DNA of 64,000 bases from the NCBI GenBank assembly GCA_963829055.1, contig CAWHHI010000006.1, forward strand, positions 32,001-96,000, in the 5' to 3' direction. Below are positions 11,540-64,000 of this stretch, in pieces (position 1 is the first letter of the stretch; each line of letters starts with the position of its first letter). The translations under genes were made by a program, and so were the position numbers. Source of the stretch: an uncultured Gemmatimonadaceae bacterium. Its GTDB lineage: Bacteria > Gemmatimonadota > Gemmatimonadetes > Gemmatimonadales > Gemmatimonadaceae. Under the pieces are notes generated by a model. That model was not told where the DNA came from. It saw only the letters and a program-made list of their open reading frames with translations, and searched no databases.

Positions 11540-12067
11540 TGCTGCATCGGCCGGCGACGCGGACGTTCCTCGAGATGCGGTCGTCGTCGCAGGTCGTGCC
11601 GTTCGCGTTTCCCGACGTCGGCGCTGTCGTGCGGCGTCTCGACGTGGTGCCGGGCTCGCTGTACCGCTATCTGTACCGGGAAGTCGGGCCGCCCCTGGCA
11701 CTGGCTCGATCGCTGGGACTGGAACGACGCGCGCGTGGCGGAACACCTCGCGTTCGGGCGGCATCGAGATCTGGCTGCTGACGGTGGCTGGTACGCCTGC
11801 CGGCTACTTCGAGCTGCATCGCACCGCGCACGAGGTCGAGATCTGCTACTTCGGCCTGTTGCCCGAGTTCATCGGTCGGCGGCTCGGGCCGGCATTGCTC
11901 ACCGTGGCAGCGCAGCAGGCGTGGGGCAGCGGTCCCGAATCGCGTCTGGCTGCACACCTGTTCGCTCGATCATCCGGCGGCCGTCCGGCAACTACCAGCG
12001 CGTGGGCTTCGTGCCGTACCGCGAAGAGCAGTACGACGCGAAGATCCCGGTCGATCGGACCGTGTGA
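11540..12067 (+). CDS. GNAT family N-acetyltransferase (frameshifted; no separate start seen)
   Basis: TFLEM, YRYLYREVG.PWHW, PAGYFEL, EICYFGLLPEFIGRRLG, RVWLHTCSLDHP, NYQRVGF. Confidence 0.75.
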   Translation, partial: CCIGRRRGRSSRCGRRRRSCRSRFPTSALSCGVSTWCRARCTAICTGKSGRPWHWLDRWDWNDARVAEHLAFGRHRDLAADGGWYACRLLRAASHRARGRDLLLRPVARVHRSAARAGIAHRGSAAGVGQRSRIASGCTPVRSIIRRPSGNYQRVGFVPYREEQYDAKIPVDRTV

Positions 12068-12154
12068 GCTCCGCATCGGACTCCGTCACGTCGGGTAACA
12101 GTACCCGCTGCGGTAGCGGCGTCCCAGCCCGTCGGCCCTTATACTGCGATACGC

Positions 12155-12879
12155 ATGAACAAGCAGATCGCGAGTGCAGACGCGGCCGTCGCCCTCATCC
12201 CGGACGGCGCCACGATCATGATGGGCGGCTTCGGGCTCTGCGGTATTCCCGAATCCCTGATCGCCGCGCTCCATCGCCGCGGCACGCGCGACCTGACCGT
12301 CATCAGCAACAACGCGGGCGTCGACGACTTCGGCATCGGCGTGCTGCTGCGGGCTCGGCAGGTGCGCAAGATGATCGCGACCTACGTCGGCGAGAACAAG
12401 GAGTTCGAGCGGCAGTTCCTCATCGAAGGAACTCGAGGTCGAACTGATTCCCGCAGGGCACGTTCGCGGAACGGATCCGCGCCGGCGGCGCCGGCATCGG
12501 CGGCTTCTTCACGCCCGACCGGCTACGGCACGATCGTGGCCGAGGGCAAGGAGACACGCGAGATCGACGGCGTGCACTACGTGCTCGAGGCGCCGCTGCG
12601 CGCCGACTTCGCGTTCGTGAAGGCACACACCGGCGACACCCACGGCAACCTGCGTCTACCGGCACACCGCCCGCAACTTCAACCCGGTGATGGCCACCGC
12701 CGCGCGAGTGACGATCGCCGAGGTCGAGCATCTCGTGCGGCCCGGGCGACATCGACCCCGACACCGTCGTGACGCCGGGCATCTACGTCGCGCACATCCT
12801 CATCGGCGGGCCGTACGAGAAGCGGATCGAGAAACGCATCGTTCGACAGAGTTCGGACGCGTCATGCGATTGGGCCTGA
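12155..12879 (+). CDS. scoA: 3-oxoacid CoA-transferase subunit A (frameshifted)
   Basis: [41 protein letters not shown]. Confidence 0.88.
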
Positions 12880-45546: not shown

Positions 45547-46920
45547 ATGCAACTCGATACGATCGTCAAAGGTGGTACCGTCGTCACGCCTGGCGGGACG
45601 TTCGTCGGCGACGTCGGGATCGCGGGCGAGAAGATCGCCGCGTTAGGCTCGTCGCTCGACGCCGCGGGCGCCAAGACCATCGACGCCACCGGCCACTACG
45701 TCATCCCCGGTGTGCTCGACGTCCACGTCCACCTCGAGCTGCCGTTCTGCGGCACCGTGTCGGCCGACGACTACCGCAGCGGCACCCGCGCTGGCGCGCG
45801 TGGCGGCGTCACGACGCTCATCGACTTCGCCATCCCCTACGCCGGCGACTCGCTGAACGACGCCGCCGACAACTGGATGAAGAAGGCGGAAGGAAAGTCG
45901 CTCATCGACTACACGTTCCACATCTGCATCACGCGCTGGAACGAGCACAAGGATCAGATCGAAGGGATGGTGAAGCGCGGCTTCACGACCTTCAAGGAGT
46001 TCATGATCTACGAGTCGGAGGGCTGGCAGTCCGACGATCGCGCGCTCTACGGCACGCTGGAGAAGATGCGCGAGTACGGGACGATGCTGCTCGTGCACGC
46101 CGAGTCGGCGCGGGTGCTCGATGAGCTCATCGCGCGGCATCACACGCCGGAGCTCATGAAGCAGTACGGCGCGCGGCTGCATCCGATGACGCGCCCCAAC
46201 TTCGTCGAGGCCGAGGCGATCCAGCGCGCGGTGCAGTGGAGCGAGGCGACGGGCGGGAAGCTCTACATCGTGCACATGTCCACGGGCGAAGGCGCCGACA
46301 TCATCCGTGCGGCGCAGGCGCGCGGCGTGCCGGTGATCGCCGAGACGTGCGTGCAGTACCTCGTGCTCGATGACTCCGTGTTCGAGCGTGAGGACGGCCA
46401 TCTCTTCGCGTGCTGCCCGCAGCTCAAGAAGCCGAAAGACGTGCAGCGTCTCTGGCAGGGATTGAACGGCGGCGAGGTGTCGGTGATCTCGACGGACACG
46501 TGCACGTTCACGCGCGAGCAGAAGGCGATGTGGGAGGGCGACTGGACGAAGATCCCGATGGGCATGCCGGGTCTCGAGACGCTGCTGCCGCTCACGTACA
46601 CGCACGGCGTGTTAGGCGGCCGGATGTCGATCGAAGACATGTGCATGAAGCTGAGCACGAACCCGGCGCGCATCATGAACCTCGCGCCGCGAAAGGGATC
46701 GATCGCGATCGGCGCGGACGCGGATCTCGCGATCATTCACCCGACGCGGAAGCACACGGTGGATCCGTCGGCGATGGAGACGAACGCGGACTGGTCGCCG
46801 TTCGAGGGGTGGGATCTGGCGGGGTTCGCGAGAACGACTGTGTCGCGCGGAGAGGTGATCGTTGACGACTATCGCGTCGTTGGGAAAGAGGGGCGTGGGG
46901 TCTGGCTTCGTCGGGAATCG
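45547..46920 (+). CDS. hydA: Dihydropyrimidinase (D-hydantoinase); stop codon obscured by a repeat
   Basis: PGVLDVHVH, GGVTT, FKEFM (carbamylated Lys), VHAE, YIVHMS, AETC, STD, GMPGLE, NPA, GADAD. Confidence 0.9.
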
Positions 46921-46994
46921 GGAATAGGGAATCGGGAATCGAGACGCTTCCCGGGGCACAGTTCCGATTCCCGATTCCCGATTCCCCATTCCCG
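46912..46994. repeat. Inverted heptamer element: (GGGAATC)n - spacer - (GATTCCC)n
   Basis: Four GGGAATN units, a 23-nt spacer, four inverted units. Confidence 0.8.
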
Positions 46995-59125: not shown

Positions 59126-60073
59126 ATGACGGCGACCGCCGCACCTGCGGCGTCCGCGTACCGCGCGATAGACGGCGTTCACTGGTGCCTTCGCATCGGT
59201 GCGGCGGCGTGCTTCATCGGGCACGGGGCGTTCGGCGTCATCACGAAGTCGGCGTGGCTGCCGTATTTCGCCGTGACAGGCATTTCGCCGGACGTCGCAT
59301 ACGCGCTCATGCCGGTGATCGGAACGATCGACATCGTCCTGGGGCTCACGGTCCTGCTGTCGCCTCGGCCGATCGTGCTGCTCTACATGAGCGTGTGGGC
59401 GCTGTGGACCGCGCTGCTCCGGCCGCTCGCTGGTGAAACCGTGTTCGAGGCGATGGAGCGGGCGGGGAACTACGGCGTGCCGCTCGCGATGCTCCTCCTC
59501 GTCGGGTTACCCAGGAACTGGCGGCGCTGGCGCGGGTGGTTTCGAGTGTCTGAAGGAGCGCCGGTAAATGCCGCGACGCTCGTCCGCGTGCTGCAGTGGA
59601 CGACGGCCATGCTGCTGTTCGCGCATGGCGCGCTCGCCGCGATCACACAGAAACCGCTGTTCGCGGTGCACTACGCCGCGTTAGGTCTGCCTGCCGCGAT
59701 CGCGCCGGCGATCGGATACGTCGAGATGGCGGTCGGGCTCTCGGTCCTCGTATTTCCGATCCCGGCTCTGCTCATCGCGATCGCGGTGTGGAAGGCCGCG
59801 ACCGAGGCGTTGTTTCCGATCGCCGGAGCGCCAATGTGGGAGTTCGTCGAGCGAGCTGGCAGCTACGCCGCACCGCTGGCCCTCGCGCTGCTGGTGGCCA
59901 GCCGCAGCCCTGTGCGCACCCAAGGAGAGGTTTGTGGTAGATCGTTAGGCATTACGTCATTCCGAGCGGAGCGCCGAAGGCGCGCAGTCGAGGAATCGCG
60001 ACTCGTCCCGATAGAGGGCCCCTCTAGCCGTATGATCGCGATTCCTCGACTCGCTGACGCTCGCTCGGAATGA
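59126..60073 (+). CDS. Multi-pass membrane protein with two DoxX-like repeats; 3' end runs into a palindromic repeat
   Basis: Duplicated pattern LR...A..F.(G/A)HG...I..K and E..ERAG.Y..PL. Confidence 0.65.
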   Translation: MTATAAPAASAYRAIDGVHWCLRIGAAACFIGHGAFGVITKSAWLPYFAVTGISPDVAYALMPVIGTIDIVLGLTVLLSPRPIVLLYMSVWALWTALLRPLAGETVFEAMERAGNYGVPLAMLLLVGLPRNWRRWRGWFRVSEGAPVNAATLVRVLQWTTAMLLFAHGALAAITQKPLFAVHYAALGLPAAIAPAIGYVEMAVGLSVLVFPIPALLIAIAVWKAATEALFPIAGAPMWEFVERAGSYAAPLALALLVASRSPVRTQGEVCGRSLGITSFRAERRRRAVEESRLVPIEGPSSRMIAIPRLADARSE

Positions 60074-60092
60074 CACGGCCGCTCGGAATGAC
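59956..60092. repeat. Full-length GTCATTCCGAGC..GCTCGGAATGAC palindrome plus one extra right end
   Basis: Arms nearly identical to 53570-53686; inner TAGAGGG/CCCTCTA hairpin; second GCTCGGAATGAC at 60081-60092. Confidence 0.85.
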
Positions 60093-60115: not shown

Positions 60116-61126
60116 ATGCTACTCACACATGCCTTGTTGACGTTCCTCGCGGCGGCGAGCCCGCCCGATAGCCTGTTGTCGGCCGACTCGCTGCTCGTCG
60201 AGTTGCGGAAGGGCGGCTACACGATCGTGTGGCGTCATACGGCGACCGACAGAAGTGTCCAGGAGCCAATGGACTATCAGAACACTCCGCGCTTTCAGCA
60301 GCGGAACTTGACCGACCGCGGCATCGCCGACGCGAAGGCGGTCGGAGCGATCTTCAAGAGCCGTGGCATCCCGGTCGGCGAGGTGCTGTCGAGCCCAATG
60401 TTCCGGACGCGCGAGACCGCTGAATACGCGTTCGGGCACGTGGAGTCCACGCCGCTGCTGCGTCAGGTCGATCGGTCACCGGAACAGCTGCGGTTGATCG
60501 CCACCGAGCCAGCCGCCGGAACGAATCGCGTGCTCGTGACGCATCACTTCGTGATCGAGCAAAACGTGCCGGGCATCAAGCCGGGGATGATCGGCGAAGG
60601 CGAAGCGGTGGTGGTGAAAGCAACCGGCCGCGACGGGCTGCGCCTCGTCGGCATCTTCAAGATGGCCGACTGGCAACGGCTGAGCGAGCAGCTCGACAAG
60701 TCCGCATCGACGAGCACCAACGGCGGAACCGCAGCCAGGACGTTCGTTCACGGAGGGGCCGCTCCGGCTGGCCCTACGGCGTCGCCGGCCGCCACCGCAG
60801 CGTTGCTCCAGGCCCCGCAGAATGTCGCGATCACCAACTATCTCGAGGCCTTCAACAGCGGCGACGCAGCGCGCATGCGCGAGTTCTACGAGCGATCCGT
60901 CGTGCCGAATCCGACGCGCACGATGGACGAGCGGATGGAAGTCTACAATCGACTGAAGGGCGACCTCGGAACAGTGACTGTGATTTCGGCCGAGGCTGTC
61001 GAGACGAATCGTGTTGCGGTGAAGGTTCAAGCGAGCAAGGGAACCACCGCCGTCATCACGTTCGCCCCTGAAACGCAGCAGCCATACCGCCTCGTGACGA
61101 TCAGCTTTGCGATCGTCGGCGGATGA
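60116..61126 (+). CDS. Secreted histidine phosphatase family protein with an extra C-terminal domain
   Basis: AAGGAG RBS; WRH, QRNL..RG, SSP..R..ETA, LVTH. Confidence 0.75.
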   Translation: MLLTHALLTFLAAASPPDSLLSADSLLVELRKGGYTIVWRHTATDRSVQEPMDYQNTPRFQQRNLTDRGIADAKAVGAIFKSRGIPVGEVLSSPMFRTRETAEYAFGHVESTPLLRQVDRSPEQLRLIATEPAAGTNRVLVTHHFVIEQNVPGIKPGMIGEGEAVVVKATGRDGLRLVGIFKMADWQRLSEQLDKSASTSTNGGTAARTFVHGGAAPAGPTASPAATAALLQAPQNVAITNYLEAFNSGDAARMREFYERSVVPNPTRTMDERMEVYNRLKGDLGTVTVISAEAVETNRVAVKVQASKGTTAVITFAPETQQPYRLVTISFAIVGG

Positions 61127-61274: not shown

Positions 61275-62273
61275 ATGGAAAGCCCGTCGAACACTCAGGC
61301 GACCCGCTCAGCGAGCAGGTCGCCCGAAAGTGTCCCACTCCCCTCCGACAGCATCATGATGTGGGGTGCCAAGGGATCAGGGAAATCGGTGTACATCGCT
61401 TCCCTGGTCTACTGGAGTCCTCCCGCTGATGCCGCGCGTCGCGTGTGCGTGCTCCCCGCGAATTCAACGGCGGCCGAGTGGGTGGCGGATCGCGTCAGAA
61501 GCCTGACGGCCGCGGGAATCGGGAATCGGGAATGGGGAATCGGAGCCTCCGCGGGCAGTTCGATTCCCGATTCCCCATTCCCGATTCCCGAGGTGTACAA
61601 GACGCTCACCGAACGCCGCCTCGACTTCCGTCTCTACACCCTGCCCACGACGGCCGGGCCCATAACGCGGCTACTCAACACCGAGTCGCGCTACGAGGCG
61701 AGCCTCAACTTCTGGGACGTGCCTGGCGAAGTGTACGACGGCGACATCCCGCCCAACATCCTGCGCGAGATGACCCGCGCGCGCGGGCTCATCCTGCTCA
61801 TCAACCCGAGCTTCGTGCCTAACGAAGGCCGAGAGCGCTACTACATGCGCTTCTTCGACCGCACGCTCGGCCGACTCAAGTTCGCGCTCGCCGAGGCTGC
61901 GCGTCGAGGGGAGCGGGTGCCGTTCGATCCGCGCACGAACCAGCTCACGATACCGGTTGCGGTCTGCCTGAGCCAGATCGATCGGTCGCCGCAGTTCATG
62001 GACGCCGAGCCGAAGGCGCTGTTCGAAGAGACCGTCGGCGACACCGCGCCCATCCTGTACTCGTGGCTCACGACGTTCGACATCTTCAAGCTGTCGGCGT
62101 TAGGCCGGCCGCTGCGCCGAGTCGGCGATCGCGAGGTGCTCGACGGCGAGCCGCGGCCGAAGTTCGTTCACTTGCCGATCTCGTGGATCGTGAGTCGGAC
62201 GGGCGGCGCGGAAGGCGGACGGCGGATGGCGGATGGCGGAGGAACAGCGCGGGTATCTGGGGGGCGGGCATGA
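61275..62273 (+). CDS. TRAFAC-class P-loop GTPase (conflict-system type) carrying an in-frame repeat insertion
   Basis: G1 WGAKGSGKS, G3 FWDVPGE, GLILLINP, G4-like VCLSQID, G5 LSALG. Confidence 0.75.
   Translation: MESPSNTQATRSASRSPESVPLPSDSIMMWGAKGSGKSVYIASLVYWSPPADAARRVCVLPANSTAAEWVADRVRSLTAAGIGNREWGIGASAGSSIPDSPFPIPEVYKTLTERRLDFRLYTLPTTAGPITRLLNTESRYEASLNFWDVPGEVYDGDIPPNILREMTRARGLILLINPSFVPNEGRERYYMRFFDRTLGRLKFALAEAARRGERVPFDPRTNQLTIPVAVCLSQIDRSPQFMDAEPKALFEETVGDTAPILYSWLTTFDIFKLSALGRPLRRVGDREVLDGEPRPKFVHLPISWIVSRTGGAEGGRRMADGGGTARVSGGRA
61513..61590. repeat. Inverted heptamer element (78 bp) inside the GTPase CDS
   Basis: CGGGAATCGGGAATCGGGAATGGGGAATCG - 18 nt - CGATTCCCGATTCCCCATTCCCGATTCCCG. 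Confidence 0.85.
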
Positions 62274-64000
62274 CCACCGCAACTGCACCTCGCCGCGCGA
62301 TCTGGGGGCTCGTCAACGACGGGTACGCGCTCGTCGCCAAGACCGCGAACCTCACGCCCGACGAAGCATTCGAGCTGTGTCGCGTGCCCGACATCGGCGA
62401 CCCGAGCGCCTACCTCGACTTCGGCGTCGCGTATCTGCACGCTCCGAAGTGGGGGCACGTGTTCGCGCGATACTTCACGAACGCCGAACGTGACTCCGCA
62501 GGGCGTGCGTCGCTCGTGTACGACGTCGTCGCGCTCAGCGACCACGACTTCGCCGCGCTCGGCAACGATCCTTTCGCCGCGCTGCCTCCGCTCGCGAGCG
62601 ATCGCCGGCCGGAGCGATTCGGCGAGCTGCCCCTCCCGACATTTACTCGGCGCGACAATGGCTCCGAGGCCGCGCGACTCACCGAGCTGCTGGCGCGTGA
62701 GGATCACGCGGCGATTACCCTGCTGCTCGGAGCCCTCCTCGCTGGCGATCGCGTGCTCTGCCTTGCGAACGGAATACGCAGTGAGACTGTCGAATGTCTC
62801 ACGCTACTGCTCCCTCCGTCTCTGCGAACGCTGGTCACGTTTCAGATGCCGACGGTCGACTTTCCGAAGCACGCGCCACGGCTCACCGTGGCCGAGCGCG
62901 CGCATGCGCTACTCGTGGAGCGCGACTGGACGGCGGTGCTGCCCCAGGACGCGAGCGATCCGCGACTCGCGGAAGCGACGGCGACAGCCACCAGGCTCCT
63001 GGCGTTAGGCGCGAATCCACTTCGTCTGCAGCGGGCCTGGAGTCCGATCGAGAATGCTTCGTCCGGTGCGTCGAGTCGCGGGACGCAAGTCGTCCAGCCC
63101 GACCTGGGCGTCGCGGTCGCTGCCATGCTTCGCATGGACCAACTGCACGAGGCACTGCGCGCGGGAGACCTGAGACGCGCGGTGCTCGTCGCCGCACGAG
63201 CCGAGACGCTGGACGAGCGCGTCAGTTTGTCGGACGCGATGTTCGCGCAGTCCACGCCGGAACGCATCGCGACCGCGCTCGGAGACGTCGTGCGCGGCGA
63301 GCAACGTGGCGCCTGGGCGGCAGTGCAGGCGGTGGTCGGCAGCGTCGTCGCGAAACGCGAACGGCAACCCGAGCACTTCGCGTCGTTCTTCACCGTGCTG
63401 ATCGACTGTCTGTGCAGTGTCCCACCGAAGCCAGATGATGCGACTGCCCGACTCGTCCTCGTTACACTCGCGTGCGCGGCGGCGTCGCTCGATGATCTCG
63501 AGCGCTTTCTCGACGTCGCCGACCCTACCCTCCCTTGGGAAAGCGCCTGGCGCGACGGCAGCGCACGCTGGGTAAAGGGACGCTCGGCTGTCGCACGCGT
63601 CTTCGATGCGCTGGCGGCGAAGGGCGCGACGTACGGCGATGCGATCGACGGCGTGCACGCGATCGGAACGGTTACCGCGAAGGCAACCGTTGGTCGAAGC
63701 CGAGATCGTGCCGCGGCGCTCGGCCTCGCACTCGTCAGGCGGACGCTGCGCGAGCGCGCGACACTCGAGCCCCCCGATCGACTCGGCGCACTCGTTGGTG
63801 GGCTCATGCACATATGGTCGCCCGACGTCATCGGTGTCGCGCCGAGCGTCGCGTCCCCGGCCGATGAGACCGACCGCACGCTGCGCCGCTTCCTGGGAGT
63901 CGGCGAACCGCTGTCCTCGAGCCATGACCCGCGGCGGCTCGCAGCTGAACTGTCGCGCACGGTCGGTGAGTCAGGCGACGGCGGGGACACGGAATTACTG
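62270..64000 (+). CDS. Large GTPase-associated (GAP1-like) protein, open to the window edge; absent from the ORF track
   Basis: ATGA overlap with the GTPase stop. Hand translation gives 577 codons without a stop: DGYALVAKT, RDSAGR, GNDPF, LLPPSLRTLVTF, then a long helical region. Confidence 0.7.
   Translation, partial: MTTATAPRRAIWGLVNDGYALVAKTANLTPDEAFELCRVPDIGDPSAYLDFGVAYLHAPKWGHVFARYFTNAERDSAGRASLVYDVVALSDHDFAALGNDPFAALPPLASDRRPERFGELPLPTFTRRDNGSEAARLTELLAREDHAAITLLLGALLAGDRVLCLANGIRSETVECLTLLLPPSLRTLVTFQMPTVDFPKHAPRLTVAERAHALLVERDWTAVLPQDASDPRLAEATATATRLLALGANPLRLQRAWSPIENASSGASSRGTQVVQPDLGVAVAAMLRMDQLHEALRAGDLRRAVLVAARAETLDERVSLSDAMFAQSTPERIATALGDVVRGEQRGAWAAVQAVVGSVVAKRERQPEHFASFFTVLIDCLCSVPPKPDDATARLVLVTLACAAASLDDLERFLDVADPTLPWESAWRDGSARWVKGRSAVARVFDALAAKGATYGDAIDGVHAIGTVTAKATVGRSRDRAAALGLALVRRTLRERATLEPPDRLGALVGGLMHIWSPDVIGVAPSVASPADETDRTLRRFLGVGEPLSSSHDPRRLAAELSRTVGESGDGGDTELL

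Follow-up and report, generated by a model that had tools for sequence, protein, structure and literature searches.

Introduction

The DO-GTPases are, in the main text of Kaur, Burroughs, Iyer, Aravind (eLife 2020, PMC7159879), defined by a Glu in the Walker B motif, by their frequent pairing and by a downstream GAP1 gene. As that text presents them, the DO-GTPase/GAP1 systems were predicted computationally to be conflict systems, several of them with membrane and peptidoglycan-binding parts (PMC7159879). Transpeptidase, FtsW and DENN are absent from the main text and two supplements of the study, the Figure 1 source data of which may list such loci, and our literature search on GAP1-N1/GAP1-N2 found nothing beyond this 2020 paper.

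A second point of comparison is the SEDS-bPBP pairs, RodA-PBP2 and FtsW-FtsI. Excerpts of PMC6207328 report that engineered RodA-PBP2 fusions are functional, that RodA D262 is required, the D262A substitution abolishing polymerase activity, and that MreC is linked to SEDS-bPBP activation. Our literature search on SEDS-PBP fusions returned engineered fusions only, natural SEDS-PBP fusion clusters are present in the ESM Atlas, and no paper was found that joins a fused SEDS-transpeptidase with GTPase conflict systems. Here we describe an operon in which divergent relatives of the DO-GTPase/GAP1 families are encoded together with such a fusion.

Results and Discussion

A Five-Gene Operon Crosses the Window Edge

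We analyzed a window of 64,000 nt, corresponding to positions 32001-96000 of contig C6 of this genome (G000). The first two genes of a same-strand, five-gene operon, which encodes GTPase 1, a GAP1-like protein, GTPase 2, a SEDS-transpeptidase fusion and a coiled-coil lipoprotein, reach the window edge, and the remainder was followed on the contig (Table 1). Stop and start codons overlap at junctions 1-3, both here and in G305, a genome that is 100% complete in four contigs and in which the operon is intact; at the first junction, the TGA of GTPase 1 and the next ATG form an ATGA at 62270-62273. The initial annotation had proposed such a coupling to an ORF of at least 577 codons, and this ORF indeed has its first 577 codons inside the window and comprises 830 aa in the full contig. 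A second GTPase, which had been expected downstream, is also present (491 aa).

Table 1. Operon genes and the repeat inside GTPase 1 (window positions unless contig C6 of G000 or its numbering past the edge, L001, is given)
Feature	Position	Strand	Description
GTPase 1	61275..62273	+	DO-GTPase-like, 332 aa from ATG, no predicted membrane segment
Palindromic heptamer repeat (hairpin)	61514..61589	+	In-frame, in the G1-G2 loop of GTPase 1
GAP1-like protein	62270..64000, ends G000:C6:96762	+	First 577 of 830 codons in window
GTPase 2	G000:C6:96759-98234 = L001 4759-6234	+	491 aa, past window edge
SEDS + transpeptidase fusion	C6:98231-103529 = L001 6231-11529	+	~1765 aa in relatives; split in G000
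Coiled-coil predicted lipoprotein	~C6:103650-104592 = L001 ~11650-12592 (start approximate)	+	Cbp1-like C-terminal domain

Homologues of GTPase 1 numbered 149 among 7999 scored candidates and those of the GAP1-like ORF 78 among 8000, with dN/dS values against three same-genus loci of 0.08-0.10 and 0.20-0.26, respectively. Because homologues are many and dN/dS is well below 1, we regard both as real genes. Across the four operon genes tested, dN/dS was 0.08-0.27, and it was 0.12-0.13 for a neighbouring DEAD helicase.

The product of the gene directly upstream (60116-61126) belongs to the histidine phosphatase family and shows a weak SnoaL-like match at its C-terminus; we place this gene outside the operon because relatives carry other genes at that position. 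A second family of dispersed palindromic repeats occupies intergenic sites at 59955-60090 and at L001 11535-11660, the latter in the gap between the synthase and lipoprotein genes, and contig depth at these sites is very high. In one RNA run, 11 of 30 bins contained small contigs, which we do not count as evidence of expression.

The GTPases and the GAP1-like Protein as Probable Divergent Members of the DO-GTPase/GAP1 Families

The motifs initially annotated in GTPase 1 were all confirmed, namely GAKGSGKS (G1), DVPGE (G3), the atypical SQID (G4) and SALG (G5), and the Thr of a YKT motif, the invariant T110, can be read as G2. GTPase 2 carries GAPKAGKS, TKT, DPAGE, SKID and SSAG, followed by a weakly hydrophobic segment, which in this genome falls below the hydropathy threshold, and a conserved helical tail. 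The G4 Gln is invariant in 36/36 close homologues of GTPase 1 and appears to be a genus-level trait, because Lys takes its place in the G305 orthologue (TKAD) and in GTPase 2. The Walker B Glu (E152) is equally invariant in the 36 homologues, and the G305 protein has Ala there. A housekeeping GTPase was considered and rejected: neither GTPase of this genome matches NCBIfam, and GTPase 1 was found by single-protein query in 7 of 41 genomes, all from a single genus (7/7 genomes of g1, 0/34 other relatives).

The features by which Kaur et al. recognize DO-GTPases are found in the operon, i.e., a Walker B Glu (DVPGE, DPAGE), two paralogous GTPases, which occur in all complete operon loci read, and a gene in the GAP1 position downstream of a GTPase. 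Against the Pfam DO-GTPase models, the two proteins of this genome score 12.0 and 12.4 bits with a cut-off of 27 (GTPase 1 versus DO-GTPase2, E 0.16). The G305 orthologue of GTPase 1 reaches 25.1 bits (E 5.8e-4), and two relatives exceed the cut-off, P0217 with 32.4 bits (matched by the GTPase 2 profile at E 2e-67) and a GTPase of the divergent locus L074 with 34 bits. When 48 of the 97 GTPase profile hits were scanned against the DO-GTPase models, 36 matched at E <= 0.001.

The three motifs previously noted in the second ORF (GY..vA.T, DxxGR and LPxxLRxxxTF) are present as GYALVAKT, DSAGR and LPPSLRTLVTF, and the long helical region said to follow them corresponds to a C-terminal stretch of ~550 aa that is predicted to be all-helical. 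A Pfam scan of the GAP1-like protein of this genome (P0002) gave no match, and two relatives matched GAP1-M weakly, below the cut-off (E 0.016 and 0.007). In a language-model search of the ESM Atlas, the closest clusters were GAP1-N2/GAP1-M, the top match scoring 0.95, with 210/256 features shared and GAP1-N2 annotated in 46% of its members. Profile links over the cut-off, these Atlas clusters, the second GTPase and the conserved linkage described below together support the earlier proposal of a divergent DO-GTPase/GAP1 pair, a membership that is suggested by relatives and not by Pfam scores of the proteins themselves above the cut-offs.

As far as the systems are described in the main text of Kaur et al., the GAP1-N2 type resembles this operon in its paired GTPases with a Glu after the Walker B Asp, in a GAP1 or putative GAP1 gene directly downstream and in what may be a membrane-type segment near the C-terminus of one GTPase, and a near-envelope role was suggested there too (PMC7159879). 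In contrast to the systems of that text, the operon has no zinc ribbons and no tubulin, Hsp70 or kinase theme, and the genes linked to it as output encode a SEDS-transpeptidase fusion and a predicted lipoprotein. Pfam scans of the operon products from this genome, the same-genus loci and G305 contained no GASH or FNIII-repeat partner, and no highly variable effectors in a mobile neighbourhood were seen, content and position being constant in the genus. Because neither feature was found, we file the operon as a variant sharing the core rather than assign it to one of the described subtypes.

A Predicted DENN-like Fold in the GAP1-like Protein

Residues 1-330 of the GAP1-like protein are predicted to adopt a DENN-like arrangement of a longin-like sheet, an alpha/beta domain and a helical bundle, with the remainder forming a helical solenoid. 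We modelled the N-terminal part alone because the helical repeats swamped searches with the full-length model. Foldseek ranks 1-7 for this model were all DENN-module chains, with a poor global fit; model residues 3-322 align with DENND1A 7-357, i.e., across the whole module. Identity to DENN proteins is 9-14%, and the domains are not superposable as a single rigid body. A 7-sequence GAP1 profile searched against the PDB for a sequence link to DENN returned two designed proteins alone (E > 1). The same N-terminal model also matched TagF, a type VI secretion regulator, at ranks 9, 15 and 26, the last of which we take to be TagF.

The modelled order of domains is like that of DENND1A/B, folliculin-FNIP, DENND10 and C9orf72-SMCR8, and, as in the Asgard DENN operon, the gene for the predicted DENN-like protein adjoins small GTPases. 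In contrast to these modules, the GAP1 protein is bacterial, carries a long appended helical solenoid and has DO-GTPases as its neighbouring partners. DENN is placed in eukaryotes and Asgard archaea only in the excerpted sections of two studies (PMC3521125; bioRxiv 10.1101/2020.10.19.343400), and our literature search for bacterial, prokaryotic or archaeal DENN found none, all matches being eukaryotic DENN-like. It is tempting to speculate, though we hold it tentatively and at less than even odds, that the GAP1 proteins represent genuine DENN modules in bacteria and that the operon is a Rab/DENN-like circuit which switches on a third, single-chain synthase so that wall is built or patched at a chosen site. 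If GAP1 is a DENN homologue, it would be a bacterial relative of a eukaryote/Asgard regulator, and the origin of DENN would reach into bacteria.

A SEDS-Transpeptidase Fusion and a Predicted Lipoprotein Complete the Operon

In relatives the fusion is a single ORF of 1756-1768 aa with 18-20 predicted membrane helices, an extra soluble N-terminal domain of ~300 aa and inserts. It matches FtsW/RodA and transpeptidase models, mostly below cut-offs: the SEDS part matches TIGR02614 with E 4.7e-7, its L074 version passes the Pfam cut-off (34.4 bits), and the transpeptidase part passes in the relative P0207 (22.9 versus 22.1). Among the ESM Atlas clusters that bear a name, those closest to it are SEDS-transpeptidase fusions (0.93). 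An FHA-like assignment for its beta-rich domains was dropped, as no FHA model matched, and these domains are left unnamed. The Asp of LTDNAF in the SEDS part lines up with the Asp of HTDFIF in the SEDS protein that this genome has of its own, and the Asp of this HTDF motif is presumably D262 of E. coli RodA. Transpeptidase motif residues are S1403, S1467 and K1681 in the relative P0125, with equivalents in others; SxxK and KTG/KSG occur in 8/8 transpeptidases inspected, for 6/8 of which SxN was seen at the correct spacing, and the DNA of this genome also encodes SxxK, SxN and KTG motifs.

Judged by these motifs, the fusion resembles the RodA-PBP2 and FtsW-FtsI pairs (PMC6207328) in what appears to be the C-terminal half of a SEDS protein, the aligned Asp included, and in its SxxK, SxN and KTG motifs. 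It differs in being very divergent, in the added N-terminal domain and inserts, and in being tied, in the loci read, to GTPases and not to genes of the mre or dcw groups. Contig C16 carries two ordinary SEDS genes that have transpeptidase genes close by, of the FtsW/FtsI and RodA/PBP2 types, and because these pairs sit elsewhere in the genome, we count the fusion as a third synthase.

In this genome the fusion gene contains seven frame breaks, as it would if the synthase were a decayed pseudogene in this strain and the window showed an orphaned switch. However, all seven are +1 single-base insertions, and protein identity between them is 66-90%; contigs of near-identical strains are without the extra base at L001 10035 and 10121 and have gaps across three further sites; 6/6 same-genus genomes carry the fusion without a stop (five full length, one cut by the contig end); and core PBP genes of the same assembly are split across frames as well (G000:C16:825291-826176 and C4:444996-445735). 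Decay is therefore very improbable, and on the strength of the near-identical strains, the split core genes and the six open copies, the breaks are likely to be assembly errors. As the split core PBP genes point to indel errors throughout the assembly, its ORF calls need care.

The fifth gene resembles Cbp1-family lipoproteins (NCBIfam NF052320) in its coiled coil and C-terminal domain, two relatives matching the family at E 4e-20 and 1e-11. It differs in staying under the family cut-off of 90 bits (72 and 45 bits in these relatives) and in travelling with the GTPases and the synthase.

Conserved Linkage and Its Exceptions

The pairing of the second ORF with the GTPase, as initially annotated, holds beyond this genome. 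The order GTPase1-GAP1-GTPase2-fusion recurs in 10 loci (G000; L028-L031, L033; G305, G466, G425, G562) from four genera (g1, g49, g166, g43) of the Gemmatimonadaceae, a group of soil bacteria; these genomes are kin, and no statistics are claimed for the linkage. The same DEAD helicase gene is found upstream of the operon in this genome and in 4/4 same-genus loci with upstream sequence. Profile searches of the family detected GTPase 2 in 22/401 genomes (6/77 genera) and the synthase in 32/401 (10 genera); 18 of the 22 GTPase 2 genomes also match the synthase profile, and the other four are 64-80% complete. The GTPase 1 profile was matched in 2/401 genomes of a phylum sample.

Two very divergent loci hold related genes in a different order. 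L074, found by GTPase at 23-27% identity, encodes a fusion, an SH3-like protein, an ABC pair, two GTPases and a GAP1-like protein; L085, found by synthase, encodes a SEDS protein, a transpeptidase, two GTPases, a membrane protein and an ORF that is GAP1-like by motifs only. The GAP1 profile scored 9.1 bits for L074, where 800 shuffles gave at most 7.4, and did not detect the L085 ORF (-3.4 bits). A metagenome scan for this divergent clade yielded three short loci, among them L081 (3.5 kb), which has the order GTPase-GTPase-GAP1, scores 23.7 bits with the GAP1 profile and is too short for a synthase. The ABC pair of L074 (G690:C586) consists of an ATPase and a permease, and one of its GTPases is a degenerate membrane form. 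This contig may be transferred or mis-binned, since it is the sole match among 14 genomes of its genus.

Switch and synthase are separated in genus g178, where one locus carries GTPase1-GTPase2-lipoprotein (L068 7288-10483) and another a SEDS-transpeptidase pair with a lipoprotein-like gene (L078 6089-13099). In the GTPase 1 of this genus, G3 is degenerate and G4 reads TQTD, and GAP1 was not found in five g178 genomes. Divergent SEDS and transpeptidase genes also occur as orphan pairs with no DO-GTPase nearby, in genera g45 and g44 (L084 6859-12560, L087 7209-12886, L086 6761-12026), and the split SEDS forms that were aligned have Glu for Asp at the catalytic position. The split loci, with a lipoprotein-like gene beside each half, the orphan pairs and the Asp-to-Glu change would all be expected if switch and synthase were separate modules that often lie adjacent, the GTPases, GAP1 and lipoprotein serving another membrane task and the synthase working alone or as a non-catalytic binder. 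We consider this improbable, as the genes overlap within one operon in four genera, the two very divergent loci keep the linkage despite their different order, and g178 genomes carry both halves.

A Proposed Switch for Local Wall Synthesis

The sequences show the parts list, the motifs, the linkage and the selection, and the interactions of the products described below are inferred. Our preferred reading, to which we assign a probability of roughly 55%, is that the two DO-GTPases and the DENN-like GAP1 form a switch for a dedicated third peptidoglycan synthase, allowing conditional, local wall building. The GAP1 protein would govern which nucleotide the GTPases carry, either as an exchange factor, like DENND1, or as an activating protein, like folliculin. 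GTPase 2 would anchor the switch at the membrane with GTPase 1 as its soluble partner, and the active switch might engage the extra N-terminal domain of the synthase. The fusion could then polymerise and cross-link glycan within one chain, positioned from outside by the lipoprotein; envelope damage or a developmental change would be the most likely trigger.

The initial annotation had placed the effectors of a defence system beyond position 64,000. What lies there is the constant fusion and lipoprotein rather than variable toxins, and Pfam and NCBIfam scans past the edge contained no toxin-type effectors. Given a double-GTPase switch joined to an extra, fused wall-building enzyme, the operon likely controls local wall synthesis rather than toxin release. 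The same parts could nevertheless serve a conflict system as Kaur et al. understand the term: GAP1 would sense an invader (phage, predator or injection), and the synthase would act as effector by sealing off or thickening the wall at the site of attack or by poisoning the normal synthesis of wall. The core genes do come from families predicted, in the main text of that study, as conflict systems, several with membrane or peptidoglycan-binding parts (PMC7159879); the distribution in the family and the phylum sample is patchy, and the GAP1 model also matches TagF. However, the set of genes is constant and includes no variable effector, the same DEAD helicase lies upstream in all same-genus loci with upstream sequence, all genes tested are under purifying selection, and the Pfam hits of the five products include no nuclease, TIR, SLATT or peptidase. 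We consider this reading unlikely; a variable-effector defence island in particular is not supported, given a GTPase that is present in 7/7 genomes of the genus and has one chromosomal place wherever upstream sequence is available, purifying selection and Pfam scans that contained no GASH/FNIII partner. Because content is constant, position fixed and selection purifying, envelope remodelling fits better than a fast-changing defence island, and wall reinforcement under attack would unite the two.

SEDS-bPBP pairs are activated by MreC or the divisome, and small-GTPase control of such a synthase would, if true, be a new mode. Local wall building under a GTPase switch would likewise add a fourth theme to the DO-GTPase systems and a new way of regulating wall synthesis. 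The operon also gives the predicted switch a concrete output for which standard assays exist, namely lipid II polymerisation, penicillin labelling and D-amino-acid incorporation.

A Hypervariable Hairpin inside GTPase 1

The hairpin within GTPase 1 has a folding energy of -65.3 kcal/mol (z -7.85), equalled by 0/200 shuffles. It is hypervariable in the genus, where orthologues carry GGGAAT-, GGGACT- or GGGAAC-based repeats at the same site and the insert measures 96-168 nt (5 loci read); G305 GTPase 1 is without it and has a plain 12-residue loop at that position. The site may be a hot spot of repeated insertion or a conserved mRNA structure. Searched genome-wide with the exact pattern, arm pairs of GGGAAT-, GGGACT- and GGGAAC-type repeats number 20, 9 and 13, respectively, and more copies of the GGGAAT heptamer palindrome family lie in the window at 46913-46993 and 52619.
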